Part shown: positions 10,352 to 45,838 of the stretch, in pieces | How the letters are laid out: each line of letters starts with the position of its first letter | How positions within the stretch are numbered: position 1 is the first letter of the stretch | Origin: Phyllosticta citribraziliensis | Lineage: Eukaryota | Length of the DNA: 64,000 bases | Assembly: GCF_038025025.1 (NCBI RefSeq) | Contig: NW_027117352.1 | Span: 496,001 to 560,000 of the forward strand | Direction: 5' to 3' | Position numbers and translations under genes: made by a program | Notes under the pieces: model-generated | Told to the model about the DNA's origin: nothing | The model's input: the letters and a program-made list of their open reading frames with translations, nothing else | Databases searched by the model: none

Positions 10352-12444
10352 ATGCCTGCCATCCTCGACGACCCCTCGACCCCAACCATCTACCGCCAGT
10401 CTGGCGCCGCGCCCTTCCCAGATGCCTCGACGCCCCTGCCCGCGTCCATCGTGTCCAAGCCCGTGATGCTGCGCGACCGCACGACCAAGGCAACCCTGAT
10501 TCCGTTCGGCTCGGCCGACCGCGTGCCGCTGTCGTTGGTCGAGTACCTGTGCGCGCAGATGAACAGCGAGATTGAGCGCGGCGACACGTACCCGATGATG
10601 GCGCCGTTCAGCGTCGAGGCGTTTGGCCGCTACTGGTTCCAAAACTTTGCCGCCGTCATGGTGCTCGGCGACGTTGCGGACGACGGGCAGGGCGCGCTGT
10701 GGCGCTGGGAGGCCGACGGTGCTGGATGGGACAAGCTGTGTCTGGGCAGCTTTTACATCAAGCCAAACTACCCCGGCCGCAGCTCGCACGTCTGCAACGC
10801 GGGATTCGTCGTCACCGATGGCGCGAGGAATAGGGGCGTGGGCAAGCTGATGGGCGAGTGCTACTTGGAGTGGGCGCCGCTGCTGGTACGTTTGATTCCG
10901 TCAACAACGCAACGTTTACTCATGAGTCGACTCGTTCTCCGCAGGGCTACACGTATTCCGTCTTCAACCTCGTCTACGAGACCAACGTGGCGTCGTGCCG
11001 CATCTGGGACGCGCTGGGCTTCAAGCGCATCGGCCGTGTTCCCGGCTGCGGCAACCTCAAGACTCAGCCCGAAGGCCACTTTGTCGACGCCATCATCTAC
11101 GGCCGCCACCTGGGCTACAACAAGGAAGACGCGGACGACGAGCGCCGCTTCGAGCGCATCAAGTATTACCTCTTGACGGGCAAGTATCCGGGCGACGCTG
11201 ATTCCGCCGAGAAGAACAGACTCCGAGCCGCAGTGAGGAACTACACGCTTGTCGAGGTGGGCGATGGCGACGGTGACGACGCAAACACCAGGGCGGCGGC
11301 CACCGCTGCAAGGCCAACTCCTGGCATCTCTTCCATCTCGACCGACGCAGGGACCCGACGCGTCAAGCTGATGCTCGGTGACAAAGAGGTGATTTCGGAT
11401 CCGCGGCAGCAGTACGAGATTGCGCGGCAGTTCCACCGTAGCGGCGGTAGCATCATCAACAACAATGGTAGCAATCACAACAGCAACAACAACCACGGCA
11501 GCAACAGTAACAATGACAATGCCGGAGCCCTTGCTGGAGGGAGCCACCACGCGGGCATCAATAAAACGACGGCCAACGTGTCGGAAAAGTACCACTGGAA
11601 CCGCATCAAGGGCACCGTGACGGACGTGATTGAGAACTGTGCCGAGTGCGGTGAAAAGGTGCGCAAAAAGGCGCAGCTAAAGTCTGCCATTGCGTCCTCT
11701 TCTGCCACTGGTGGCGGTGGTCAAATTGCTGCTCCCCCTCCTGCGTACAAAGCCGCTGCAACAGACACAACCATGACGAACCCTTCTACTGCTGCGGATG
11801 GTGCTGAGCAAAATGCACTGTATAATTCTTTTGATGCTGGTGGTGGTGGTGTCTTTGCCAGCAGTGCCGCCGACGCCTCTTGTCCTCCTGCTTCTGCTTC
11901 TGCTCCCACCGCTTCTCACCTGTCCATCTCGCAACTCGGCCACAACACGGCTCCCAATGGCTTCGCCCCCGCGTCTACATCTCCCGTCGTCGAGCCCGAC
12001 CCGGCGTTGCCGCCGCCACTGCATCCGCCCATATTGTCCAACTCCACCACTACCGCCGCTGGCCCGCACCAAGGCGCCTTCGGTCACGAGCATCACCAGC
12101 AGTACCCCTATCCGCAGCATCAGCACCAGCATCACCACGACCCGCCGCCGCCACCACCGCCGCAATTCTTCTTGAGCGCCACGACTGCGACAGGAGGAGC
12201 GGTGCACGGCGGTAGCAGCGAGCACCCGCAGGGCTCTCCTTACGCTCACCCCCTCCATCTCGACCCTCAGATCCACTACCGCCCGCCTGACATGTCTCCC
12301 TCGTCGCCGTCAGACGTCGACGCGCAGCTGGCGCACGCTCTGGCGCATGACCTTGCCCGCGACGATTCATCCGCGGCTATGGCGCTTGATCCGAGTATTT
12401 TGGAGGCGGATGTGGATGAGGGGGAGCGTGGGGGGTTGGGGTAG
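10352..12444 (+). CDS. SPT10: Spt10-like GNAT acetyltransferase with C-terminal H2C2 zinc-binding domain
   Basis: EIERGDTYP, GSFYIKPNYPGRSSHVCNAGFVV..RNRGVGKLM; intron 10886-10944 joins WAPLL to GYTYSVFNLVYETNVASCRIWDALGF; then HHAGINKTTANVSEKYHW..V..CAEC (H2C2) and a low-complexity Q/H/P tail. Confidence 0.88.
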
Positions 12445-28431: not shown

Positions 28432-30577
28432 ATGCCCAAAGAAAACCGCAAGCGCGGCCGCCGCGACGAGAGGAAGAAGCGCAAGCTCGACCACATCGCC
28501 ACCGAAGACGACGCACACCAGACCAAGAGATACAAGGCCCAGGACCAGGACGACCAACCTGCGCTCCCTCAACATCCCGTCGAACACGACCAGAATGCAG
28601 AATTTTCCGCCCAACCCCCGCCGGGTGAGGTCGTCTTTTATGGCATGCTCGACGACGAGGAGCAGGACTACTTTAAGCGCGCAGACGAGATGCTCGAGTT
28701 GAATCAGTTTGGAGATCCCGAAGAGCGCGCCCTCTTCCTTGCCAACGTCTATCGCGAAGCCGACGGCAAGGAACTCAAGATTGCCAACAGCCAATCCTGC
28801 TCGCGCCTCATGGAGCGCTTGATCCAACTCTCGGATGCTACACAGTTGAAGAATTTGTTCAAAAAGTTTAGCGGCCAGTGGGTTCATCGCTTCCATTGCT
28901 TCAAACTATGCTAAGATTTCCAGTTTTCTGAATCTCGTCCAACACCGCTTCGCGTCGCACTGCTGCGAAGCCCTCTTCATTCACTCTGCTCCCGTCGTCA
29001 CCCACGAAATGATCAATCCTCCCCAAGACCAATACATTGATCCGCAGGATGTACAAGTGTCCATGGAAAACCTCTTCCTCTACGCCGTCAACGAACTCGA
29101 AGGCAACCTGGGCTATCTCATGACGGACAGGTTTGCGTCGCACACTTTGCGCGTACTACTGGTGGTCTTGGCCGGCGAGTCGCTGGCGCGCTCGTCACAT
29201 AGGTCGTTATTACACAGCAAGAAAAAGGAGCAGGTCAGCGTGGCAAGGGCCGAAAACCCGGACGAGAACATCTTGGAATCTCGGGCCGTCCCCGAAGCAT
29301 TCCTGGCAGCCTTGGAGAAGATGATCAACGGCAGCGTGGCCGGACTGGACACGACCTATCTCCGCGCGCTTGCAACGCATCCAACCGGAAACCCCGTACT
29401 GCAGCTCCTTGTCAAACTCGAGCTGACCAAGTTTGGCAAGCAACGGGCCAAGGACCAAAACTCGCTCCTCAAGAAGCTGCTGCCAGATGATCTCGTGACG
29501 GAGACGAACGAAAGCGGCGCCTTCATCCACGGCATGCTTTTCGACACGATTGGATCGCGGTTGCTCGAAGTCATCATCGAAAATGCTCCCGGAAAGCTAT
29601 TCAAGTCCATGTACAAGGAATTTTTCAAGCCGCGCATGGCCAGCCTTGCCCGAAACGAGATAGCCGGTTACGTCGAAACCAAGGTGCTGGAACGGCTGAG
29701 CAAGGAAGACTTGGAAGAAGCAATGCACTCGATCCTGCACGAGGTGCCGAAACTAGTGGATCGGAACCGCATCGCCGTCATCAGGAGCTTGATCGAACGC
29801 TGCGCCGCACGACAGGTCAACACTGCGCCCCTTGCGCAAGCTCTGGAAAAAGCATATGCGGGACCCAACGGTTTTGAGATTTCGAGGCTCCTCAAGCTCG
29901 GAGAACCGGCGGCATCCGAGGGCTCCAAGGGGGAGGCGCAGGGCAAAAAGGGCCAACCGTCGGCGGACAGCCTGCACGGATCGCTTCTGGCGCAGACGAT
30001 GCTGGGGGTGCCGGGGCCGCTGAGTGGACTCGTTTTCGATGCGCTGGCTCGACTGGGCACGCCTCTGGCGTTGAACATGGCAAGATCGGCCACAGCCAGC
30101 AGGGCTCTGCAGGAAGCACTGACGTCGCCGCTCGCCACCATCATCTTCAGGCGCAAGGTGATTCAGCAGTTTTACGGGCACATTGGCGAACTGGCTCTGG
30201 ACCCGTCGGGATCCCACGTCATCGACGCCATTTGGAAGGGCACGCACGGGCTTGCGTTTATTCGGGAGCGCATCGCCGAGGAGCTGGCGGAGAACGAGGC
30301 GGCGCTGCGGGAATCACACGTGGGCCGCAAGGTGTGGAGGAACTGGCGGATGGACCTGTACAAGCGACGGAGATCCGAATGGGTCAACCAGTCGCGTGAC
30401 ACGGCGGGCAACGGGGCGTTTGTGCCATTTCCGGAGCCGGCAGACAGCAACAGCAACAGCAACAACAACAAAAGGAAGGCCAAGACGGCCATAGAGCTGG
30501 CGCGGGAAAATCATGCGGCCGCAAAGCAGCGCAGCAGGAGGAATCAGGACAAGGGCAAGGCAAAGGAGGAAAACTGA
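28432..30577 (+). CDS. NOP9: Nucleolar protein 9 (PUF-like repeats, 18S rRNA maturation)
   Basis: MPKENRKRGRR; FYGMLDDEEQDYFK; GKELKIANSQSCSRLMERLI; 46-nt intron 28878-28923 joins to HFLNLVQHRFASHCCE; FASHTLR, GSRLLE, GSHVIDAIW, KVWRNWRMDLYKRRRSEW. Confidence 0.93.
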
Positions 30578-30876
30578 GGGCACAGGAGACGGCGGCGGCG
30601 TATGCGGCGCATGTAGGGAGCATTGATGTAATGGCGAATCTATCGAGATGTGGGTGAGATCGGAACCGAAGTGAGATCCAAACGAGATGCGGTGCCAAGG
30701 ACGGGCACACTGTGCGGTCTGACCGCGGGACCCTGTCACTGCGCGGCCAGATGCATGGCTCCGTCATAGCCGCCGCAAAAGTCGTGATCAGCCAGTCACA
30801 ACTTGTGGTGTTGACTTTTTGCACCACCGCGCTGCACTTGTTTTTCGTCGCCTGCATTCCGTTCCATTCTCCCACC

Positions 30877-31407
30877 ATGGCCATCAACGGCACCAACGGC
30901 TCCTCCAAGGCCCATGTGCTCTCGCGCGCTGACGACGTTGCCGAGGTCGGTGCGCCCATGTACCCGGTCGTGTCACATTCTTGCCATGCTGATCCATGGA
31001 TTGCTTCCTCTGTAGCTGCTAGACGCCGTTCAAAAGCTGCTCATCCCGTTTATCCGCCGCGCCGACGACGACGCCGCCACCAAGCCCACAGCCCGCGGCC
31101 TGCAATCCCACGGCGCCAGCGGTCCGCGCACCGCCCTGGTCGACCTGCTGCCGCCGCACAAGCTGGAGCCACTGCTGGCCCTCGACCTGTCTGACGATGG
31201 CGTCGGCAAGGACGGCGTTCTCCAGCTCGTCGAGCGCGTGCTGCAGTACTCGGTCAACACCTGGGACCAGGGCTTCTTGGACAAGCTGTATGCCTCGACC
31301 AACGCCGTGCGTACCTGACGTCCTCCATTCTGTACTTTTTAGCTGACCCCGACCAGATTGGCGTAGCGTCTGAACTCATCCTCGCCGTGCTCAACACCAA
31401 TGTAGGC

Positions 31408-31443
<36 letters not shown>

Positions 31444-32692
31444 CCGCTGAAACACCGCTGACACGCTCCCCAGGTGCACGTCTACCAGGTGTCGCCAGCC
31501 CTCACGCTGGTCGAAAAGTACGTGACCAAGCGGCTGGCCCAGCTCATCGGCTTCACGAGCCCCAATGCCGGCGGCATCAACCAGCCAGGCGGCAGCGCCT
31601 CCAACAGCTCGAGCGTCGTGATCGCGCGCAACACACTGTACCCGGAGACCAAGGACAACGGCATTGGCGGGCGCCGCTTCATCCTCTTCACGTCGGCCCA
31701 CGGGCACTACAGCCTGGAAAAGGCGGCGCAGATGTTCGGCTTCGGCAGCCGCGCGGTGCGCGCCGTCCCCGTCGACGCCGCCGGCCGCATGGATCCCGCG
31801 GCGCTCGAGTCGCTGGTCGTGGCGGCGCGCGACGCGGGCGAGACGCCGTTCTACGTCAACGCGACGGCGGGCACCACGGTCATGGGCTCGTACGACCCGT
31901 TCGACGCCATCGCCGACGTCTGCCAGAAGCACAACCTGTGGCTGCACGTCGACGGCAGCTGGGGCGGCTGCGTCATCTTCAACGACGCGCTGCGGCGCGG
32001 CCGCACCGATGGCATTGAGCGCGCTGACAGCGTCGCCATCACGCCGCACAAGATGCTCGGCGTGCCCATGACGTGCAGCTTCCTGCTCGCCAAGGACTTG
32101 CGCCAGTTCCATCAGAGCATGACGTTGCCGGCCGGCTAGTGCGTTGCCCCCCCCCCCTGACCCCCTTTTCGACCCCACCCCCCTGATTACTGACGCTTCC
32201 TCCCGGCACAGCCTCTTCCACAACACCCCCACCGACGAAATCTACGACCTGGCCGACCTCACCCCGCAATGCGGCCGCCGCGGCGACAGCCTCAAACTGT
32301 ACCTCTCGTGGGCCTTCTACGGCTCCGCCGGCCTCTCCTCGCACGTCGCAACCGCATTCGCGCGGTCCGAGCAACTGCACGCCCTCCTCTCCGCCTCGCG
32401 CGACATCGTGCTCGTCACGTCCCCCGACTCGCCGCCGCCGTGCCTGCAGGTGTGCTTCTACTACGCGCCGGCCGGCGCGCTGCACGCCGACGCCGACGTC
32501 AACAGCGCGCGCACCGTCGCTATGGCCGAGCGCCTCATCCGCCGCGGCTGGATGGTCGACTACGCGCCGGGCGCGCGCGGCAAGTTCTTCCGCGTCGTCG
32601 TCAACCGCGAGACGCTGCCGGGCACGGTCGAGGGGCTGGTGCGCGCCGTGGTGGAGGCGGGCGCGGAGGTTGTCGGCGAGGAGACCGCGTAG
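30877..32692 (+). CDS. Group II PLP-dependent decarboxylase (glutamate/cysteine-sulfinate/aspartate decarboxylase-like)
   Basis: YSVNTWDQGFLDKLYAS; LNTNVHVYQVSP; QPGGSASN; HYSLEKAA; TAGTTVMGSYDP; WLHVDGSWGG; PLP lysine in TPHKMLG; DLTPQCGRRGDSLK; four introns, the last splitting codon TA/C. Confidence 0.9.
31409..31441. repeat. 33-nt poly-C homopolymer in decarboxylase intron 31402-31473
   Basis: Read directly. Confidence 0.9.
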
Positions 32693-32933
32693 GGGGTGCG
32701 GCGACGGTAGGTTCATGTACGTAGCAAGAGAAGGATATAGAGAAAGAGGAAGAGGAAGAATGGAGGGCTGTTCGTGGTGTGGAGAGCTCAACTTCGCAAG
32801 AGGAAGATGGTGAACCGGAAAAGTTCTGCTCGCTTGCTTGCATGTTTGGTGGCTATTCTGCTTGGGATTCTAGATGGTGGTAGACCTTTTTTCTTTGCAT
32901 CGGACAACATCCACATCCACTTAGTCTCTTCAT

Positions 32934-34032
32934 GGCTCCCCGCCGTGCTCCCGCGTTGGCAGGAGGTACGCAACTTGCGTGAATGCCGCAGTGTAACGTC
33001 AGCTCTCAGAGTGGTCTTGTATGAAGCCTTCAATTCTCTCGTGTCTTCGAGAGGGTCGATAAAAAAGGAGAAAAAAGAGAAGACGAAGGCCCCCAGAAAC
33101 GGTGAGAAAAACTTGGAAACCAGCCAAAATCCAGAACCAACACCACAGAGCCCCATGTGCCCGGCTTTGGGAGCGGTAATGGTCATGTCATTAAGGGGGG
33201 TTCGGGGCGGGCGGCGGTCCAGGACAAAAGAAAGCAAAAAAGAGAGCGACACCACAAACACCACCCGCCAAAACCCACAACAAACACCGCACAACCGCGT
33301 GCCACCCCCTCAACGCCACCTCCTCCATCCCTCGCCTCCTCCGCAGCCAACTGGCTGCCACCTCGGCAGCAGCGTCGCCGCCCAACAAACAAAACAACAC
33401 CAGACAACAAAGACAACAAAGCCCCGCGAGCCGGGCCTGAACGCACGCCAGCGCCATAGGGGACGCCGGGGTCAACCACACCGCGGCAAAAAGATCCAAG
33501 ACCGCCCGGCACCGCCTCTGAGACATCCATCAGCGATGTTCGATCTGGAGACTCCGCCTTAGTGCTTGCGGCGTCTCGGTGAGCCCCCCAGGGAACAGCC
33601 TCACGTTGCGAGGCCGCAACAACGACGACATCAGAGTTTCCTCCACTCGGGGCGCGGCTGCCGGGCTGCAAGCCTTCGGTGTCATGTTCCCGGTGGTGTG
33701 GTGGCGATGGTTATGAGGAGGGAGCTATTGCATCATTAGCATGAGATCTTCAACAGACGCAAGCGAATGAGTTGTCTACGTACATGCTGGTGCTGGTGCT
33801 GGTGTTGTTGTTGTTGCTTCTGCTGCTGCTGCCGCAGCCGACTGCTTCCTGAGTTAGCAGTGTCTCAGAAATGCTGGATAAGATTGGACGAGGTTGCAAG
33901 AGAACGTACCCCTTGCCGCCGCTGCTGCCACCGCCGCCGCTTCTCCTGCTGTGGAAATTGTCAGTAAGTTGTTGAACAGGGAGATTTGAATGTGACGTAC
34001 CTCCTGCCAACGCGGGAGCACGGCGGGGAGCC
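32934..34032. repeat. Perfect 37-bp inverted repeat (arms 32934-32970 and 33996-34032)
   Basis: GGCTCCCCGCCGTGCTCCCGCGTTGGCAGGAGGTACG at the left arm and its exact reverse complement at the right arm. Confidence 0.9.
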
Positions 34033-34066
34033 CGTAGGCGAGTTCCAACGCCCCGGGAAACGACAT
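33191..34066 (-). pseudogene. Spliced membrane-protein paralogue 1 (low-complexity N-terminus, hydrophobic C-terminus), probably disrupted
   Basis: Three GTACGT...CTRAY...YAG introns (33949-34000, 33849-33909, 33725-33783). One spliced frame runs APRRAPALAG..RLRQQQQKQQQQHQHQHQH.. and, through a single TGA at 33530-33532, into hydrophobic ORF 33191-33526. Start codon unresolved. Confidence 0.45.
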
Positions 34067-35472
34067 GGCGGCGGGACGGGGAGCAAGAGGCTGGGGGCTG
34101 GACGCGGGCGGGCGAGACGCGAGAGTCTTGAGAGGTGAAGGGGAGAGCGAGAGCGAGAGGTATGGGCGTCGGGCGCGCGTGCAACTTTGAAAAGGGGGAA
34201 GAATGCTCTTGCAAGCGAACGATTGGACGGCGCGGCGGACGAAGAGGGTGCTTCAAGCAGTGAGTGGATGGTTGAGAGATGGAGGATGGAGTTTGGAGGA
34301 CGGAAGACGGAGGACGTTGGGCGGGGCGGCGTGCTCGGTCGTGTTGGCAACGACGGCAGCTGCGAGACGCGGGAAAGAGCACTTGCTTTGATCACCCCAC
34401 CGCCCCCATCGCGGCCGGAAGCGGGAACACCAGGGAAATCCGAAGAATGCTCCTGGAGTCCGAAGTTGACGGCAGACGACAGACAGCTCCCCGAGCTCAA
34501 GTCGGATGGAGGATGACCACTTTCTGGTGCGGCTCAATCCATGCCGTCCAAATCAAAGGCATGAATGCCATGTTGGCAAGGAACTTGACCAGATTTGGCA
34601 GTCACCTTTCCCAATGTTTGCTTGGCGAGACTGTGGCAGTGAATGATTGATGGCAGGGGACGGCGTGATGTCAGGAAGCATCACTTCTTCAGTCACACAA
34701 AACGTGGGCAAAGCGGGATGGATGGGAGACTCACTCAGATGAGTACATACAAAATTGGCTCGTTTTACGGATTAGTGGGTTACTGACTGTCGGACAGATT
34801 CCTTCTCGTCTCTTCGTCTTCTGCTCCTGCTCCCATATCCTCTCAGGGCATCCGCCTCCCAACCTTTTTTCTTTGCATCTCGTTCGACATCGACGTCCAC
34901 ACAGTCTCTCTTTCCATTGGATGCTCTTGAATGCTTCTTTTCCGTCTCTCTACTTCTTGTTCTTCTTGGTGGTCACTCTCCGTTCACCGAATGCTCCTTG
35001 GTTCTCTACCCTACCGCTTTGAGCTCGAGTGCTTCCTTCCCGTCCCTCTACGTGTTGTTTGTTGTTGTTGGGTGGTGATGGGCGTGATGGCGTGATGGCT
35101 GTAAGTGGGAAGCGCCCACGGTTGGAGCATCCACGCTCCCACCCCTTCTGTTTGCACCACTTGTGGAGCTCGGGCATCGAGCATTGGTTGGCAGGTCCCT
35201 CCTGTCGGTAGGTACCAGTGGCTAGATTGGCCGGTATGTTAGGCGGCACCGCCATGTACCTGAGAACGAGGCTTGGTCTCAAAAGCTGTGGCTCACGACA
35301 AGAGTACCAGGGAATCGGGAGTATTCATTTGCTCGAACAGACTACTGATGGGAAGCATTCATACCTAAGTCTGTGGCTGTCCACTGATATGGAGCATTCA
35401 AGCGTCTGAAAGTGGTGATTGGCATGGCTCAGGTTGGAGTGACCTCCCTCTCTGCCAGGCAGGTCTGCGGAA

Positions 35473-35519
35473 ACCGCAGCTTCACCGCAGCTTCACCGCA
35501 GCTTCACCGCAGCTTCACC
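35473..35519. repeat. 11-bp tandem repeat (ACCGCAGCTTC)x4
   Basis: Four exact copies plus ACC. Confidence 0.9.
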
Positions 35520-35791
35520 TTCCGCGTCACTTCCGGAGATTTCGAGGAAGCTTCAAAGGTTCATGTCTGTGTGTGCTCCTTCACCTTTATCGTTGCGACA
35601 GCAACGAGCTCGAATGCTCCCTGTGCTTATATGTGCCGGTCCCCCCTCTCCCCTGTTTTCGTTCTCTGGCACCACCACTGACGACCAATCTCTCGCAAAA
35701 GCAAAGAATATTTTTATCATCCAACGTCAATCACGCCGCCTCTTTTTTTTTTTTTTTTTGCCCGTCTCTCGCTCTCCCTCTCTCCCCCAAA

Positions 35792-36582
35792 ATGAACATC
35801 ATCGAGCTGGAGGAGCTGGGGGGCCACCCGGTGTCCGTACGTGGATCATTCACTTTAATCAAAGACGTCTGGGAACGTTGCTAATGACATCGACAAGACA
35901 GCGAAACAAGCCTCCGTCCCGTCGTTGAGGAGGAGGACACCGAGGCGGCACGGTGGCGGTGGCGGGAGCAGCGATGGCGACAGCGACAGCAGCGCCATGT
36001 ATGTGGACAACTTGCTTTCCATTGATCAAGCATCTCGGAGAACCTTGCTAATAGTTGTGATAGTACCGCCTGAGAGCGTGGCAGCGTGCGCTCCCTGCTC
36101 CGTCACCACCCCCTTCGCCTCCAGCTCCGCCGACCCCAACACCACCACCAACACCACCACCAACACCATCACCACCGCCACCACCACCACCATCACCACC
36201 AACACCACCAACACCACCACCTCAACTGATGTCTCCCCGGGCGGTCGGCCGGGCCAGGCCTTCGGCAAGCCTGTCGCGCCCTGGAGCCGTCCGGGGGGCG
36301 GCCGCCTTGATGGTGGTTGGTTGGTTGGTTGTCGTGGCTGTTTTGTGGTCGGCGGCGTCGCGCGGGCGGGCGCCCGAGGAGCGCAAAGCGCTCATGACCA
36401 AGCGAGTGGCGGCGGTGTCCGGTTTGGTGGTTCTGGGGGGGGTGGCAGTTGAGGGAGGAATGATGTGGTGGGAGAGGGGGAAGGGGGGATGGAGGGGGTT
36501 GGTTGGGGTGGTAAGAATTATTTTTGTTTTTTTGGTCGTCGCTGTTGCGGTGGTGGGGGCCGTGGTTGGATTTGTTTTGTAG
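35792..36582 (+). CDS. Spliced membrane-protein paralogue 2: proline-rich region plus three hydrophobic segments, unknown family
   Basis: Introns 35837-~35897 and 35999-36063. Last exon 36064-36582 is open: YRLRAWQRALPAPSPPPSPPAPPTPTPPP..QLMSPRAVGR..AAALMVVGWLVVVAVLW..VAAVSGLVVLGGVAV..IIFVFLVVAVAVVGAVVGFVL*. 5' end and start frame uncertain. Confidence 0.5.
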
Positions 36583-39500
36583 TTTTTTGTTTTTTTTTGT
36601 CCTCTCCGCCTCCCTCCCTAATGCAATTCTTCAAGTCTCCCACAATTCTTTCAAAATGATCCACGTGAAATGTGTCTTTCGACAAAGCACCGCTCTGAAA
36701 CGCATCTGCAAAGCAAAAGATTCAATTGCATTTGACCTTGAGCGAGGGCAAAGCAATGGCGGACAGCGCATGAATGCTTCCTAAGCGCGACTGTAGCAGT
36801 GAATGGATGCTCCCTAAGCGTGATTGCAATATCAGATTCCTTCACCTTGCCTTTTCTGCTCTTGGTCTGCCCGGTCCTGGGCATCGTTTAGAAGCGCGAT
36901 GGTGTCTGCCCATTTCTTTCTCCAGCGCTTCTTACTCATAATCCCAGATGTGCCCTCAAAGATGAAGAAGTCACGCTTCATGCCCCTGAGTCTCTTTTTA
37001 CCTTTGGAATCACGGCCACCTCCAGTTGTCAAGCTGTTTTTACGCAAACCGAGCTTTTCCTCAACACCATTCAGCCACCGCCGGTCGATATCTGCGTAGA
37101 AGTCTTTTCGCCTCCGTGCTTGCTCGAGATCGAATTGCCTTCGTTCCTCGTCCTGTTTAGCATCAAACTCGTGACCGTTTTCAATGGCCTCGGTATCGCG
37201 ATCGGCCTTTGGCCACAGGTTCAGTTTGCCGTTTTTGTATTTGCCGCACATGCGCTTCTTCTTCGTCGGGTTCCGTTTGTCGACAATGTCCGCGCACACG
37301 TCTGCGACGGGGATGTCGTGCTTACCCTTGACTTTTGGAGACAGTTCCAGCTTGTTGTCTTTGTATTTGCCGCAGAGACGCTGTGTTCCATTTCTCCCAT
37401 CTGGATAAGGAACGTCCGCACATGCATCGCCCGTAGGAGTATCTCGGCGTGTAAGTCGCCGTGCAAGCCGCCGTACAAGGCTGGCAGATCCTTGTTGTGC
37501 TTCAGGCTCCCGCTGCTGCTGCGACCCATTCGTCTGCCTTCTCTGCTCTTCATCGACACGGTCCTGGGCGTCATTCAACATCGCGATGGTCTTCGCCCAT
37601 TTCTTCCTACTCATAAAGCCAGATAGGCCTTCAGAAAGGAAAGAGCCTTTCTTGATGCCTTGTGGGATTGGCACCATCTTGCCGTTCTCGAGTTTGAAGC
37701 AGAGCCGCTGCGTTCCATTTCCTCCGCCGGGGAGTTCGTAAGGCACGTCGGTACATGTGTCGCCGTTGTCGCCGTTAGGAGCACCCCGGCGTTCAAGTCG
37801 TGCGGGTCTTTGCGGGTCCTCGGGCTTTTGCTGCTGCTGTGACTCCTTTTCCGCTCTGAGCGCATTGTCAACACGGTCCTGAGCACTGTTCAGGAGCTCG
37901 ATGGTCTTTGCCCATTTTTTCTCCCATTTCTCCCGGCTAATGGGTCCAGATAGGAGGCCTTCATGAAGGAAAGCGTTGCGCTCCTCGCCCCAGAGCCTCT
38001 TTTCACCTTTTTCGTTAAAGCCACCCAGAGTAGTCAAGCTATTGTTGCGGAGACCGAGGTATGCTTCAATGTCGTTGAACCATATGCGGGCGTCCCAGTG
38101 ATTGAATTGTCTCCATTCCTCTCTTTGGTTGCGGCCGAATTTGGCCTTTCTCTCCTTTTCTTCGCGTTCGAATTTTTTCTTCCTCTCCTTTTCATCGCGT
38201 TCGTACTGCTTTCGTTCCTCCTTCTGCTCGCCGTAGAATAACTTCCAACGTGAAGCCTCTTGCTCCATGCGACCTGCTTCTGGCCACATCTCCAATTCGC
38301 CGTTTTTTCTGTACATGCCACACAACCGCGTCTTCCAAGGCATGCCCTTTCGATCAACGGCGTCGACGCATATCTGTGTGAGGGGGATCTTGTCTTTGGG
38401 GCCGCTCACTGGCCGAAGGCGCATCCGCCCTTTTTTGAGTTCGCCGCAAAGGAACTGCCTCGTCCCCTCTAGGCCAGGGCGTTCATCCGGGATGTAGACA
38501 CACAAGCCGATGGGATGCTCTCCGCGTCGCACAAGTCGGTTAACGCCGTCTGGCTTTTTGACCAAGCCGCCCGAACCGACGTCTCGCTTTGCATTTTTCT
38601 CGGCGGCATCCTCGACGTGCTGGGCCTGGTTGAGAATCTTGATGGTCTCTGCCCATTTCTTGGCCCAGGCGTCTCTTTCTTCTCCGGTTTTTGCATCTTT
38701 GAAGGCGTAGAGGAATGCGGAAAACTTCCGTTTCGGTATTCTCTTCTTGCCGGACATGTCAACGCCGCCTGCAGTGGTGAGGCTGTTGTTGAGCAACACA
38801 CCCATCCTGGCCTCCAGTTCGTTGTAGTATTTCCGAAGGGTCCATTTTTCATATTCCTTCTTCCTCTGCTTCTCCTCGCGGTGGAACTGCTGTTTTTCCA
38901 GCTTCTGCCCGTCTTTGAATTGTTTGTGGAGCTTCTTCTGTTCGGCGATGAACTGGAGACTGCGCTCAGAAAGCGCTGATGTTTCAGGCGTCGCTCCCTC
39001 TCGTTTGACCAGTGAGCCTCTTGATTCGGCGCCCACTTTGCGCTCAGCGCCGAGCGTGGCGTTCCGCCGCTGTTCGTTGACGACCTCCTGGTTCCGGTTT
39101 AACCATATGAAGTACTTTTCATAGTGGTCCATCCAGTTTTCAGCGCTCATCCACTGCGCATCCTTAATGAGTTGCGCAGCGGTATTGGCCCAGTTGGACT
39201 GCTGAGCGTGACGGTTCGAGTTGCCCATGCTAGACAGAGCGCCCTCAAGCAGCCCCAGCTTCCGCTCGAGCCTCCGGAAGAGTTCCTCATGCCCTGTCTG
39301 GTCCTCGAGCTGCTCTTCGTGCCACTGTTGCCACTTTTTGAACGCCTTTCTTTCCTGGTCGCATTTCTGCTTCTTCGTCCTCTCCTCCCATTCGTTCCGC
39401 GGTGTGGGTAGGAAAGTGCACTCGTACGTGCCCATTACGGTTGTATAGGGCTTGATGGTTCCGAAAACTTTGTACCCGGTCGTTGGTCGCCATTGTGTGT

Positions 39501-40960
39501 CCCGTGTCTCCAAGAGCAAACCGTGTGTTGCAGTTGGGGTAACCAAAGATTCGTTCTCGTCACGTGGAAAGGCATGTTGAGACGTCTCCATGTTCGGGGC
39601 TGAAGTGACGAGTATTTCCGGAGACTTGAGGGCTGCAGTCGCAACATCTCGTTTCTCATATCGCGTGTACCATGCGAAATCCACTGCACCTGGACCGGCT
39701 ACAAAATGAACAATCAGCAACTGTCTGCAATTGGAGTTTTTCAGGCAAAAAGCAAGAAAACGCCCTTACCGGTGCAAGGCTTCGAATGCTCATGACTATA
39801 CGGATCGACGAACGGGTCCCAAGAAGGCGAAACACTCCCGGACGTGGGCGCAGGCGCAGACAAAGCTTCCCAGAAGAGGGAGAAGACGATGATGGCGACC
39901 CGGGAATGCATGGTGGTGCTGATGCTCGAGAAAAACAAACTTGATCAGAGTGTAGTCGATGGAAGAAGCGAAGAGTCCCAGGACTTTTTTATCTGGAGCC
40001 AGGAGGAGATAGTTGGGGAAGAGTTTTCTGGTTGCGTGGGGAGGTTTCTCCTCATTCCCAGACTTCAACCATGGAGTGGTGAACCTTTGTTCCAGGAGAA
40101 GCTGTCTGTCGTCTGCCGCAACGCTCGAACTTCGGAAGCATTCAACGATCCCCACACACATGCCCAGGGAGCATACACTCCCTACTGCAGTCACACCGAA
40201 GGAGAATTCATCCGCTGACTCCTGGAGCAAGAGACACTGACAAGCCAACGACCCCAAGATCCCGTTCAAGACCTAAAAGTGTCGGCATTGCCCGCCAACA
40301 GCAGGCCCCTCCCCGAAGTTTTGTTTCAGGAACGATCATGGTTTTTTCACAAACGAAGAAAGGAAACGAAAAGGACGAAGAATGAATCCACCAAACTGGA
40401 CTGCCAATCGTCGCTTCAAGGTACGTACAATTGAATACCTGGAGACCAATCTGCAGACGAGGACAACGAAGACGCATCCTCGGACTGAACCATTTGCTTT
40501 TCAAATGCGTCTCAGAGCCGACATTCAAAACACCAACAACGGCCAACAACCACAATGAAAATCCACCCTCAATCCCCAAACCGCCAAAACACCAGACACT
40601 CCCGCCACCTTCGATTTTGAAAGAATGGTGGGAGGCTTGAAGAACTTTCATAAGAGGCGGCGGCAGAGGAGACCAAAAAACAAGAAAAGAAAAAAACCTA
40701 CACCAAAAACTCAACTATGGCGCCCACCACCGCGACAGAGACGACCAAAAAAACAAAAAAACTCTCACCATCCCCCTCCCCCCTCTCCCACCACATCATT
40801 CTTCCCTCCCTCAACAACCACCCCCCCAGCACCAACAACCCGGACAGCCCCGCCGCCCTCCTCTCCACGCGCGCCCGGCCATCCTCGGGCGTTTCCACCC
40901 ACCACCAGACCACGCCAACCAACCAACAACAAGGCGGTAGCCACCCGGACGGCTTCAGGG
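36279..40960. repeat. Diverged ~350-380 bp inverted repeat (arms 36279-36656 and 40615-40960) bracketing the secreted precursor gene
   Basis: Shared blocks between left arm and reverse complement of right arm: GAATGATGTGGTGGGAGAGGGGG, TTTTTGTTTTTTTGGTCGTC, GCGGTGGTGGG, TTCTTCAAG.CTCCCAC.ATTCTTTCAAAA. Confidence 0.85.
36832..39911 (-). CDS. Secreted ~1002-aa modular repeat precursor with Kex2-type sites; unknown family, candidate effector/toxin polyprotein
   Basis: Exon 1 39911-39770 encodes signal peptide MHSRVAIIVFSLFWEALSA/PAPT; 71-nt intron 39699-39769 (GTAAGG...GCTGAT...TAG) splices in frame to a 2867-nt open exon with internal repeats (NSLTTxGG; KKWAxTIxxLNxAQ; Cys-pair ...RLCGxY) and YEKR, LVKR, LVRR, LERR, LVRR/LARR/LTRR sites. 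Confidence 0.85.
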
Positions 40961-41730
40961 CTGGTCACGTCCTTGTGGCGAATATTGTACATGGCGGCGG
41001 CAGGAGCGCGAGAGGAGCCAGAATCTGATGTCGGCGCCGAGAGGGCCAGGCATGTCTGAGGGCTGCCGACGGGCGCGCGAAGGAGAGAGGAGAGAGACGG
41101 CGCAGGTTGTTTGACAGCCGACCGGAAAAGAGGACTGAGGTCGCGGAGCTCCTGGTGGAGCAAGAGCAGAATCGCCGTCCTGAGAAACATCAGCAACTGA
41201 TCGGCAAGCAATTCCAGAGGGTCGAAGAATGAAACCTACACCGTGTCCGCCTGCACACAGACGTGGAGCCTTTGGCCAGCGTTGATGCCTTCGAGGCGAT
41301 GCTCAAAAGCCGAATTGGCACCTTGAGAAATGTCAGCAACTGAATGAAAGCCAAGCGTTTCGGGAGTGAAGCTTACATTGTACACAGCTGGCCCTACTTG
41401 TGGCTCAGCACGCGGACGAGCAGCCCGAAATGTTGGTGCTGGACGGGTGCAACGAAGACGAGCCGCCGCAGGGAGTGCTGCGAGGTCTTGAGCGGCCAAG
41501 CTCGCGGAGGAACGACAGAAGAGAAAGGAGAGAGTGGTCGTGGGCGAAATTTTGGAGGTTGGCCGATGGATGGGGACGACGATGGAGGATAATGGATGGA
41601 GGATGAATGATGGATGATGATGGGAGACAGGCGAGCTGGGGGGACGGGGGAGGTCATAGTCATATCCCATTGTTGCTAGGGAAATGACGAAACGGAAGGC
41701 ACTCACCTACCTTACCTGCCCGAACGTCAT
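40698..41730 (-). pseudogene. Spliced membrane-protein paralogue 3, frameshifted
   Basis: PEAVRVATALLLVGW (ORF 40765-41211) and RAAGLSGLLVLGG..MMWWERGEG..FVFLVVSVAVVGAIVEFLV* (ORF 40698-40922) match paralogue 2 but lie in two frames; intron-like GT...GCTGAY...AG segments near 41180-41240 and 41320-41376; 5' limit uncertain. Confidence 0.55.
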
Positions 41731-42772
41731 GAGCGCCGAGAGTGCCAAAGAAGCTGCGGCTTCCGCAATGGAAGCTGAGAAGGGAGGTCGCACCACCTTT
41801 GGCCACCCATGAGCCAGCAGTTGCAGCACACGGAGCCTCCCCATCACTACTCCCACCCACCTACCTACCTACATGTACCTACCTCACTTGGCGACCACCT
41901 GTCAGCCAATCGGTCGATCACGACACCACAGGTATGTAGCAAGTACATGTAGAGAAAGAAAGACGTCGCCGTCGTCCCTCACGCCTGTCTGAGCTGAGCT
42001 GAGCTGACGAGAAGCTTGCAGTTGCTGCAGTCCAGCCATACCCCCTCAGAGCCTCTTTCTCGACCAGGCAGGCAGTCGGTCAGTCGTTTCTCAACACCAC
42101 AGGAGAAGGACCTTGGAAGGAGAGTCCCTCGGAGACAGATTGCAGGCGTCGGATCGAGGGCGAGGAATCAGAGCCGCGACGGACAATGCCTGGTCGAGGT
42201 AAGGTACCTAGCCAGCCAGCAGTCAGTACTGTTCAACAAGCGCGTGTGTGCGTGGTCAAGTGTGCGTAGTCACTGACTCCGCTGTCCAATTCCTCCCCCA
42301 TAACTCCATCCAGTCTCCTCTACTGCCAGCGAGGACCTTCCACTGCCATCACGCACCGCAAGCACCAGACCATCAATCAACCCAGCCGTGTGAGAAGAAA
42401 GCATTCCGCACGCCCCCAGAGAAGTAGGTAGGTAGACAAGCAGACGACGCACCAAGTCAGTAAAAGCGTGTAATCATTAAGCATTACCTACCCACCCTCC
42501 CCCAGCGCAACCTACGGCATTCATTTTTGCAGCTCGAAGCCCTTGGTCAAGCCCCGGATCATTTCCCTCTCCTCCTCTCCGTTCCACCGTCCAGCCAATG
42601 ACAACAAATGCCCCTCGCACATCATCCCATCGGCTCAAAACAAAGAAAAAACAGCAGACAGCTGCACCATCGCAAGAATAAATGCTGCTCCAATCGTACA
42701 GCGGGTAGACGCACCAACGAGACAAATGCTTTTTGAATGGAATGGCAAAACAGCGCTAGATGACAATTGACT

Positions 42773-45263
42773 TCATCGGTCGCCGCCAGCGCCAAAGCGG
42801 AAGCGGCCGAGGTTGAGCTTCGGTGCCGTGGGGAGTTCGTCGCCACTCTCGCCCTCGCCCTCGCTCTGGCTGTCCGGTATCACCAGCAAGTCTTCGCTGC
42901 CTTTGCTCTTGGCTGCTGCTTGCAGCTGCTGATGTTTTTGTGGGGGTGATGTGATCGGAGGGGGTGAGGACGACAGGACGCTTCGCCGCTCTCTTTTCCT
43001 GGGCGAGAGTTTGGCGACGATGGCGTCGAGTTCGTTCACCGTCTCCGCGATCGTAGACTTGTTTCCCTTTTTCTTCTTCTCTGGGACGGTAGGTAGGCCA
43101 TCGTCTTCTGCGCCGCAGCTGTCAGGAACAATAGGGGCGACATCTCCAGTGTCGACAAAGAAACGCTTAGGGGAGGTGGGGAGGGAAGGAGATGATCGCC
43201 CTGGAGCAGAGTCCTTGCGAGGCTTTGAAGATGACTTTGTCTTGCTCCAGGAAAACTCGGCAATGTTTGCCTTGCTGAACGCCTGCTTTGCGATGCGGCC
43301 AAGAGACGACGTGGGTTTCGTGTTGACAAACGACTCTAGAGGCTTCCGCGTGACTCGGGTCTTCTTCTCGATTCGATGCGCTGGAGAGCTGACGGTAGGA
43401 GAAGCTTTGGGCGGCGTCGTCGTGTACGCAAACATTTCCTCCAGCTGGCGGAATTTTCCAGGCAGCACCTCATCGTTGGAAGAGGTCTGCGAATCCTCGA
43501 ACTCTGCAGGGCTGTTGTATGAAGTATCGGGCGTGTTTGTGGCTTCGCGATCGTCCAGCTTGGATGCCTGGGAATCTTTCTCTTGTCCTTCCTGGCCCTT
43601 CACGGAGCGCTTCTCGCTGCTTGCCGAGGTGCTTTCTTGGCTGACAGTAGGTTGACTCGGGTCAGGTATCTGAGCCATAGCCTCCTCAATCGAGTCATCC
43701 GAGAAAATTCCAAAGTCCTGCGAGGCCCGCCTCTTCGAACCAGCTCTATTGGCCGAAGGGCTAGAGTCGCAGTCCGCATTGACAAAGAAGCGACTACTCT
43801 CCTCGACGTGAATGCCACCTTCAGCGTCGTGTATGGCCAGCGAATCGGAGCAAAGTCTCTGGCGCTTCGCCGGTCGCGTCACTGACCGACCAAGTATCGG
43901 GGTAGATACCACGCGTTGCGACGTCTGCCTTGGCGCGGTGGCTGGTAACGTCTGGCTTTGGGGCAGAGGGGGGCGAGACGGTGCTGGTGAAGCACTCCAG
44001 CTGCCACGGCTCTGCTGCTGTAAAATTTGCTGCTGGGTAGGAGAAGGAGTGAAGAGGTTGATATCCAGCTCGGCCAGGGGTATGCGACGGGGCTTAAAGA
44101 ACGAGTCGATTGACTTGCTCTTTTTCAATTCCGGCGTCTGCACCAGGGTCTGCCGAGTCCTCGGCATGATGGGTCTGCTTGGTGGCCCCATGGTACTAGG
44201 GACAGAAAGACGCTCCTTGGTGTTGGGATGCAATGCCCCTGTCGCGACGCCAACAGCGATCTTTGGCTCGTAGTAGCGGCCAATGTAGAGAAGCTCTTCC
44301 AAACGAATGGTAGCATCAGGTTCGGTGAAATTGACAAGACGCTTGGCTTCCGGACAATAGACCCATTGATACATAAAGGTCATCTCGGCCTGGACAAAAT
44401 CCTTCGCATAGCCATCGGGGACCTTGAATTTGCCGTCAAACTGGATTTGCCGCAGGACCTTGTCCACCGTCTTGTGTTTGCGAAGCAAGCGGTATGAAGT
44501 CATCAAGCCCATCTTGCTTATGTTGGGCAAGTAGTCGCACCCGCTCAGGATCGCCATCCTCCTAAACTCGGCATCAGTCCAACCGACGAAGCTGACGTCC
44601 TTGCAGGCGGTAAAGTCATGGCGGTTGATGGCGATGCATTCGCCGTACGGGTCCAGCTTGGTCATGAGACACTTGGCACCAAAAACGAGAAGGTCCGAGT
44701 CCTCGGATACAATCCCTTGGATGATTCCTTTTCGTTCGAGGTACACGAGCTGCGAGTCTGCCTCGTAAGGGGCAACAACATAGTCGACATTGATCTGCTT
44801 CAGCTCCTCAATCAAAGCCTTGGCCATTTCAGGGGTAACGTCGACAGCCTTTTGGAGTTCAGAGTGGGCCTGCGCGGACTTGCCCAACTTGAGCAACTCC
44901 ATGCCCTGTCTCTTGCTGTCCCTCCTCTTGGCGGCTCTCTCCTTGTTGGTGACATCCTTGCCGGGCAGGTGATCGCCGTCGAAGACAATGTAGGGTTTGA
45001 CGCCGAAGTGGAGGAGCATTCGCACCCGGTGCAGGCAAAAGTCGATGTGCTTGCGGGTTGGCCTGTCCAGTGCCAGATCAATCGCACAGGCCACAATTCC
45101 ACGATGCAGCCAGCCGTAGGCGTCTACACCAATTGTCTTGCCCGCGAATTCCCGAAGATGGCATGGCTTGTGGATCGACTTGAGCAGCGGGAGCAGACCT
45201 TGTCTATATCAGCAAAACCAGTAGAGACGAGACTGTTGATGAGACGGTACCGGAGATGCCCAT
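42773..45263 (-). CDS. EXO1: Exonuclease 1 (XPG/Rad2 family)
   Basis: MGISG-intron-LLPLLKSIHKPCHLREFAGKTIGVDAYGWLHRG; VFDG..LPGK; VAPYEADSQL; SEDSDLLVFG; ILSGCDYL; long S/P-rich tail. Confidence 0.95.
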
Positions 45264-45838
45264 GATGGCGGATACCCAGCGGCGATGGTCGACACCAGGT
45301 CAGAATGGGTAGGGAATGGATGGCAACGAGGCTTAGTAGTCGGACATGATGAGTCTCCCCAGGTGCCACAGGTAGAAGGAGCCTGACAGCTGACGGCACG
45401 GTGGAGCAAAGAGTGAAGGTTTTGAGGCGATGAGGTTGCGGGCGGATCGCTGACGCGCCTGCGATTGGGACGCGTCCGAGGCTGGAGCAGGACCCTGGTA
45501 GGCGCCACGACAAGGTTGGCGCTAACCGGGAAGCCTGTGGCGTCCACTTCAGGCACATCTCGGTGTTGCGTTTTCTGTTCAGAGAACAAATTGTCGGCTT
45601 TTGACTTGTACACATCTGTTTGGAAGCAAGATGAATATTCTCCAGTGCCAGCACAAGATCAAACCTGTCGCAAACTCCACACCAGACCATCATTCCCAGT
45701 CTCGTGCGCCACAGCCTGCCACACCGCCCAGGCCACCGCTCCACCGACCGCATCGTCTCCAACCGCAGCTCCAAAAAATATCACCAGCACATCCCCACGC
45801 CAACAGCTGCACCAAGCACGCCTCTCCCCGCCGCCAAA

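Follow-up and report, generated by a model that had tools for sequence, protein, structure and literature searches.

Fungal KEX2-processed repeat proteins (KEPs), among them alpha-factor precursors and Ustilago maydis Rep1, are described in one survey with repeats of 3-352 amino acids (aa), and the pipeline set out there calls for a signal peptide, no membrane span, and three or more repeats between KR, RR or KK sites, which must occupy 15% or more of the protein (Le Marquer et al. 2019, PMC6339444). Effectors of the SnTox3 type, whose pro-domain is processed by Kex2, form a second described group, as far as the accessible part of the source covers them (bioRxiv 10.1101/2020.05.27.120113). The subject here is a locus that invites comparison with both: a gene for a large precursor protein and three small loci with hydrophobic reading frames, which lie together between a decarboxylase gene and an EXO1-like gene (study interval about 32693-42772) in 64 kilobases (kb) of Phyllosticta citribraziliensis DNA, the whole of which is called the window below.

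Cassettes of a toxin and its partner are familiar from bacteriocin-immunity pairs, and yeast killer preprotoxins are cut by Kex2. A first-pass annotation of the window had proposed for this interval a cassette in which small membrane-protein genes are partnered with the precursor; if true, this would be a new fungal toxin-and-partner system, but the evidence points away from it. The UstYa membrane-anchored proteins of ustiloxin clusters are DUF3328 proteins. Clusters of the ustiloxin/dikaritin type, which make peptides synthesized on ribosomes and modified after translation (RiPPs), combine a repeat precursor with membrane proteins in the account that the available part of PMC7329392 gives, and for Drosophila inversions the part consulted of Ranz et al. 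(2007, PMC1885836) derives inverted duplications at the breakpoints from staggered breaks.

With moderate confidence, we read the interval as one genus-restricted gene for a secreted repeat protein accompanied by the debris of rearrangement, the small loci not being working partner genes. The locus would thus be a typical and well-delimited case of genus-specific secreted protein evolution in a plant-associated fungus, and its precursor one of many secreted proteins confined to the genus; a comparative study counts 288 orthogroups of secreted proteins that occur in Phyllosticta alone, and not one of them carries a functional annotation (PMC9073689). The locus also carries a caution, namely that A-poor, G+T-rich strands yield long hydrophobic open reading frames (ORFs) that resemble membrane-protein families.

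A Phyllosticta-restricted precursor gene

The precursor gene is the one well-supported protein-coding gene of the interval. A 919-codon ORF on the minus strand (36832-39591) matches with 100% identity an uncharacterized protein of 1002 aa, J3D65DRAFT_672332 [Phyllosticta citribraziliensis], called P0001 here, and a three-part model, made of exon 1 (39770-39911, with the signal-peptide-like start MHSRVAIIVFSLFWEALSA), an intron of the form GTAAGG...TGTAG (39699-39769) whose junction is spanned by P0001, and exon 2 including the stop codon (36832-39698), all on the minus strand, reproduces P0001 exactly. Codon usage was scored with a log-odds model trained on 12 ORFs of the window that have Pfam support (leave-one-out values 0.085-0.398, all 12 positive and best of six frames), with 46 ORFs as negative controls (mean -0.107, standard deviation 0.15). 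The precursor scores +0.175, the best of its six frames, as do 12 of the 12 training genes.

The protein is rich in lysine, arginine and glutamate (29% K+E+R) and has 13 cysteines. Its N-terminus, MHSRVAIIVFSLFWEALSA|PAP, resembles a signal peptide by eye and by hydropathy, and the hydrophobic start is kept in the relatives P0002 and P0003, so that the precursor would be predicted to enter the secretory pathway. On the Kyte-Doolittle (KD) scale no 19-aa window of P0001 reaches 1.6, which leaves it without a transmembrane segment by this measure. Pfam detects no family in the five interval ORFs scanned, which were four of the small ORFs and the one of 919 aa; the Atlas returned no usable match for the third of the units described next, and a PDB profile search gave one uninformative match, at E 0.25.

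Three related units, preceded by an N-terminal part of about 420 residues, fill residues 440-1002, or 563 of the 1002. All are encoded on the minus strand: U1 (37786-38523) comprises residues 440-685 and follows LVRR439, U2 (37444-37785) comprises residues 686-799 and follows LERR685, and U3 (36835-37443) comprises residues 800-1002 and follows LTRR799. The three L-x-R-R motifs stand 6-10 residues ahead of each Cys module, and LARR or LVRR occupies the same place in the homologues. A unit, 114-246 aa in size, consists of one or two modules of about 35 residues with a Cys pair, then helical segments ending in KKWxxTIxxLNxAQDRxD; U2 is shorter, without one Cys module and the long helix. The units were defined from DNA repeats and alignments, BLASTP of the precursor against itself having printed no off-diagonal match, and they align with one another and with the single unit of P0003, P0007 and P0008 over 24 invariant columns, which include one Cys pair and the KKW, TI, LN, AQDR and D positions. 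An AlphaFold2 model of U1, of low confidence (mean predicted local distance difference test score, pLDDT, 60.4; predicted template modelling score, pTM, 0.29), has long helices and a pair of small beta units, each three-stranded, and Foldseek compared it with the PDB with a best E of 0.32 and no match at E ≤ 0.001.

The arrangement makes it plausible that the precursor is a Kex2 “polyprotein”, in which a Kex2-type protease would cut after the L-x-R-R sites and release pieces of about 110-420 residues. Several observations weigh against this part of our reading. Dibasic sites occur inside the units as well (12 KR sites and 10 sites of the form [LIVMF]x[KR]R), and in so K/R-rich a protein cleavage unit by unit is therefore not assured. 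Likewise, the N-terminus of P0001 itself lies below KD 1.6, a value that P0002 and P0003 do reach, and secretion is judged by eye and hydropathy.

Relatives are confined to the genus. A HMMER search of 1.84 billion representatives gave three proteins at E ≤ 0.001, in clusters that are all from Phyllosticta, and an identity search gave two matches. The family has members in P. citrichinensis (925 and 948 aa), P. citriasiana (639 and 617 aa) and P. citricarpa (640, 359 and 160 aa, plus a 173-aa fragment). The number of units varies among the species: P. citribraziliensis has three, P. citrichinensis has about two and a half, and P. citriasiana and P. citricarpa have a single unit fused to an unrelated proline-rich tail. 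This restriction to Phyllosticta and the differing unit numbers, together with the broken state of two of the three small loci, bear out the first-pass view of a fast-evolving birth-and-death locus.

Annotation of the family differs between entries. In P. citricarpa (P0004, P0005, P0006 and P0008) the relative of the precursor is annotated as one protein of 640 aa or as fragments of 173, 359 and 160 aa, and the consecutive accession numbers of two of these fragments suggest a split or differently modelled gene. The 948-aa protein of P. citrichinensis (P0009) has 23 extra residues at the exact site of the P. citribraziliensis intron, which look like an intron retained in frame.

Three small loci and an inverted duplication

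The small loci are numbered by position as copy 1 (33191-34066, minus strand), copy 2 (35792-36582, plus strand) and copy 3 (40698-40961, minus strand). In all three the hydrophobic blocks with LGG..W..R..G are present in the frames from which they had been quoted: LGGDAAAEVAASWLRRRRG in 33194-33526 (-) for copy 1, LGGVAVEGGMMWWERGKGG in 36229-36579 (+) for copy 2 and LGGWLLREGRMMWWERGEG in 40701-40961 (-) for copy 3. A donor site CAT/GTAYGTRGACAACT is common to copies 1 and 2, and its context CATGTAYGTRGACAACT occurs just twice on the two strands of the 64-kb window, at 35996 (+) and 33786 (-).

At the DNA level an inverted duplication links copy 2 with copy 3 (36278-36822 against 40961-40159). 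Its core, 36278-36657 against 40961-40614, aligns in blastn at E 4e-53 with about 70% identity including gaps and many insertions and deletions, and two collinear blocks follow downstream (36690-36724 with 40520-40486, and 36764-36822 with 40217-40159). Repeats I1-I3, I6 and I8 of a repeat scan also link the two arms. Upstream of 36278 and 40961 the similarity is at shuffle level, the observed score being reached by 161 of 300 and 169 of 300 shuffles, and copy 3 is thus a partial copy that comprises the 3′ part of copy 2 and about 240 nucleotides (nt) downstream of it.

The arms, about 3.3 kb apart, form an exact bracket around the precursor gene. Arm 1 (36278-36822, +) covers the copy 2 ORF in its 3′ part and continues for about 240 nt beyond it, to a point 10 nt away from the precursor stop codon (36832-36834); arm 2 (40159-40961, -), which is copy 3, ends about 250 nt upstream of the precursor ATG (39911). 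So tight a bracket could mean that the arms, about 0.55-0.8 kb long, mark the limits of a unit of the mobile or capture type (Pack-MULE-like, its termini being long inverted repeats), or else of an invertible segment, with the precursor as cargo. We consider this highly improbable: the arms are only about 70% identical and differ by many insertions and deletions, the outer end of the arm falls within a unit that in copy 2 extends farther upstream, the third copy of this unit does not flank the gene, the five interval ORFs scanned with Pfam include no transposase, and the 64-kb window holds no further copy of the arms. In our preferred reading, with copy 3 a partial inverted duplicate, the bracket would be the trace of a segmental duplication in inverted orientation or of a small inversion whose breaks were staggered.

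Copy 1 would be an older and broken duplicate. Its weak DNA matches to copy 2 form a collinear chain scoring 149.9, as against at most 90.3 among 208 control segments taken from the same window. Around intron 2 the comparison scores 19, which none of 300 shuffles reaches (maximum 13); in the region of exon 1 and intron 1 the score is reached by 288 of 300 shuffles. The three small loci are therefore real DNA paralogues, and the relation is visible at the DNA level only: as a paralogous membrane-protein family they lack significant protein similarity, since composition-corrected tblastn with the copy 2 ORF gives copy 3 at E 0.12 (8.5e-18 uncorrected) and does not find copy 1. The paralogy claimed by the first-pass annotation stands for the DNA and is not confirmed for the protein.

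Coding potential of the hydrophobic frames

The frame states described earlier were found as given: one frame in three is open. Copy 2, the sole open copy, has a 217-codon model (35792-36582, +) from the ATG at 35792 to the stop at 36580-36582, with predicted introns 35837-35897 and 35999-36074 whose donor, branch and acceptor signals look canonical, and its last 117 codons contain three hydrophobic segments (KD 1.78-3.13). Copy 1 (33191-34066, -), a diverged, broken paralogue of copy 2 with an ATG at 34066, has three canonical-looking predicted introns (34000-33949, 33909-33849 and 33783-33725), after the third of which an in-frame TGA follows when the frames are read together with the intron candidates. 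No open multi-exon path leads to its membrane ORF, and the hydrophobic block is reached only by a stand-alone ORF of 111 codons (33526-33191). Relative to copy 2, copy 3 carries a frameshift, and no ATG precedes its MMWW; what is left is a partial copy with a remnant of the membrane frame (40701-40961, -, stop 40698-40700).

Codon usage sets the small loci apart from the precursor. Their log-odds (-0.192 for copy 1, -0.139 for copy 2, and -0.067 for copy 3, or -0.078 in its stop-to-stop frame) lie within the negative-control range, and when the 107 stop-to-stop ORFs of at least 60 codons in the interval are ranked, the precursor comes 3rd, copy 3 49th, copy 1 86th and copy 2 97th. Between copies 2 and 3 there is no third-position excess, with 24, 17 and 19 differences at codon positions 1, 2 and 3 (98, 98 and 99 aligned sites), and the downstream non-coding part of the arms, with 28 of 111 sites differing, has diverged at a rate similar to that of the ORF part.

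Nor do the frames appear among known proteins. The copy 2 ORF had no match, itself included, to proteins of 64-205 or 206-2000 aa among 5.8 billion clusters, none of 10 unspliced interval ORFs is in the protein collection, and Atlas scores for the copy 2 ORF (0.79 or less) are uninformative. Relatives of the hydrophobic ORF are absent from annotated proteins of 64-2000 aa, though three other Phyllosticta species carry the precursor family. On its sense strand the copy 2 ORF is G+T-rich with 10% A, and stop codons are rare in such a strand, which accounts for long hydrophobic frames rich in G, V, W and L; the hydrophobic frames would be a product of this composition and mimic a membrane-protein family.

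These tests are individually weak and independent, and all point in the same direction, so that the small loci are most likely not working genes for membrane partners. The proposed partnership with the precursor finds no support in them, and the check on co-occurrence, made on annotated proteins, goes the same way, with precursor relatives in three Phyllosticta species and relatives of the hydrophobic ORF in none.

There are points on the other side. Copy 2 retains a complete 217-codon frame with its two canonical-looking introns, and copy 1 retains three well-formed intron candidates, one with a donor context in common with copy 2; from these intron-like features it follows that the copies probably descend from some kind of spliced gene or transcription unit. 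Codon usage over about 100 codons of odd composition is noisy, and certain short antisense ORFs match the real gene in codon score. The count by codon position depends on a single alignment and mixes a possibly constrained lineage with that of a pseudogene, an unannotated gene need not be an absent one, and co-occurrence with the precursor was assessed on annotated proteins only.

Taken at their strongest, such points would make copy 2 a real young orphan gene for a protein of 217 aa with two or three membrane spans, copies 1 and 3 its pseudogenes, and its product a partner of the precursor in self-protection, reception or export. The open model with its canonical donor, branch and acceptor signals, the three hydrophobic segments, the block and stop codon position kept in both other copies, and the placement of the copies directly beside and around the precursor gene all suit this idea, which we nevertheless regard as quite unlikely: the codon usage is non-coding-like and lacks a third-position excess, the protein similarity is lost on composition correction, copy 2 is unannotated while the neighbouring precursor is annotated, no annotated homologue exists in the three species that have the precursor, and the link to the precursor is one of adjacency. 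Copy 2 could be, at most, a young orphan gene. Bolder still, and to our mind very unlikely, is the idea that with the precursor begins a hitherto undescribed class of modular secreted proteins confined to Phyllosticta, cut at L-x-R-R into large units of disulfide-bonded beta modules and helices, with the bracketing repeats driving the turnover of units and copy 2 a newborn membrane gene that sprang from this same unstable stretch of DNA.

Transcripts across the interval

Transcript evidence comes from contigs of two public runs, X1 and X2, from two studies, which are labelled as RNA by a guess. They were treated as cDNA-like (cDNA, complementary DNA) because seven of the eight joints listed remove canonical introns (GT..AG or CT..AC), three of them in the decarboxylase gene and one in the EXO1-like gene. 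The contigs carry no strand, and overlapping transcripts may be merged in them.

Among the eight joints listed none falls at an intron predicted by the first-pass annotation, and none at any predicted intron of copies 1 and 2. In the pieces listed, cover over the bins of copy 2 is 2.2 and 6.5 in X1 and 1.6 and 0 in X2, and cover across the bins of 37013-40018, most of the precursor gene, is 0 in both runs except for 4.1 in one X1 bin; no conclusion on expression is drawn from any of these values.

Transcripts do run through other parts of the interval. One X1 contig links decarboxylase exons to 33551 and so covers the copy 1 ORF region, a statement subject to the missing strand and possible merging. 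On the right, minus-strand RNA leads from the 3′ region of the EXO1-like gene (contigs 42006-43237 and 41707-42027) into copy 3 (40839-41177 and 40421-40754) and crosses two introns, GTAAGC..AAG at 41322-41376 (-; X1 only, joint 41319/41375 with CT..AC ends) and GTAGGT..CAG at 41180-41239 (-; X2 only, joint 41178/41239 with 20 letters on the shorter side). Spliced at both, this RNA has no long ORF, and the hydrophobic frame stays closed; the contigs cover copy 3 only within this RNA. The two introns are tandem duplicates of each other (repeat D13), the repeated unit of intron end and exon start (41161-41200 and 41304-41343) recurring 143 nt apart with 78% identity, and they have no homology to the introns of copy 2.

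A further spliced RNA, absent from the first-pass annotation, lies between copies 1 and 2 on the plus strand (34052-35502). Its 55-nt GT..AG intron (34743-34797) is joined in both runs, one X1 contig consisting of 34052-34742 and 34798-35502, and with a longest ORF of 126 codons it may be a non-coding RNA.

These transcripts raise the question of whether the small loci belong to spliced RNAs that do not code, or to long untranslated regions (UTRs) of the flanking genes, and are conserved for a function in RNA or regulation. The contigs bridging from decarboxylase exons over the copy 1 ORF, those running from the EXO1-like 3′ region toward copy 3 through two spliced introns, and the plus-strand RNA that lies between copies 1 and 2, spliced and with no long ORF, speak for it, as does the best-kept stretch of the inverted duplication (repeat I6; 31 nt, 94% identical), which lies downstream of both stop codons. 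Set against this are the lack of strand and the possible merging of the contigs, a search of Rfam over 30000-45500 that gave no match at E ≤ 0.1, and a conservation that is judged from copies within this one genome. We judge the idea unlikely, while giving it some weight, and retain rearrangement debris as the preferred reading of the small loci.

Flanking genes and other features of the window

The description of the interval as lying between two conserved genes proved accurate. On its left is a gene for a pyridoxal-dependent decarboxylase, whose last exon with the stop codon (32690-32692) is at 32212-32692 (+), with Pfam PF00282 on the preceding exon and an intron (32139-32211) that is spliced out in the cDNA-like contigs of X1 and X2; NOP9 lies farther left. 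On its right is an XPG/EXO1-like nuclease gene (42773-45019, -) with Pfam XPG_I and XPG_N, contigs and an intron joint, its stop at 42773.

A short motif, GAATGCTYCCNRAGYG, occurs three times in the window where 0.05 occurrences are expected (36764-36823, 40128-40143 (-) and 34445-34488), one site being just beyond the precursor stop codon and one inverted and upstream of the precursor start. The cDNA-like contigs of high depth match only 36764-36823 and continue into other sequence on both sides, which places the motif in abundant transcripts from elsewhere in the genome. A 37-nt inverted repeat of 100% identity has its left arm at 32934-32970, inside the contig reaching out from the decarboxylase gene, and its right arm at 33996-34032, where exon 1 of copy 1 ends and its GTACG donor stands; the flanks of the arms are unrelated, and an RNA reading through both would fold into a 37-bp stem. 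Upstream of copy 2, an 11-nt unit, ACCGCAGCTTC, stands in four head-to-tail copies (35473-35516). Elsewhere in the window, an ORF at 10834-12441 (+) with the integrase zinc-finger domains zf-H2C2 and Integrase_H2C2 is the remnant of a retrotransposon.

Relation to described systems

Like clusters of the dikaritin type, the locus has small hydrophobic ORFs in the neighbourhood of a repeat precursor of the Kex2 type, but the small ORFs have no DUF3328 or other Pfam domain and units of 114-246 aa far exceed RiPP core peptides, and a cluster of this type was rejected on these grounds. Its resemblance to a toxin-partner cassette, in which a precursor with dibasic sites adjoins small hydrophobic ORFs, stops at the partner: the ORFs fail as working genes, with one of three open, codon usage like that of non-coding sequence, no third-position excess and no annotation where an intact translated partner would be looked for, and they do not co-occur with the precursor in the annotated proteomes of related species. 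For its part P. citribraziliensis is counted with the non-pathogenic Phyllosticta.

Effectors of the SnTox3 type, in so far as the accessible text of bioRxiv 10.1101/2020.05.27.120113 portrays them, resemble the precursor in being secreted, cysteine-containing and lineage-restricted, with a dibasic site after a leucine-containing motif; they are small and lose a single pro-domain, whereas the precursor has an N-terminal part of 420 residues and three units. For the bracketing arms, the model of Ranz et al. (2007, PMC1885836), in the form that its available part conveys, was described for Drosophila, and here the segment between the arms is only about 3.3 kb and the ancestral order is presumed; the likeness lies in a segment bracketed by inverted copies that would stem from one breakpoint, one of them complete and the other partial.

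The KEPs offer the nearest parallel for the precursor itself. It differs from them in that its units are large, unequal and structured, with many internal dibasic sites, that its sequence is unrelated to the KEP motifs described, and that its cleavage is predicted from the sites alone. Atypical as it is, it would qualify on paper, judged by what PMC6339444 sets out, and it resembles them in a start that by eye has the look of a signal peptide, its lack of a membrane segment, its at least three related units, each after a dibasic RR within L-x-R-R and together making up 563 of 1002 residues, and in unit sizes that fall within the reported range of 3-352 aa.

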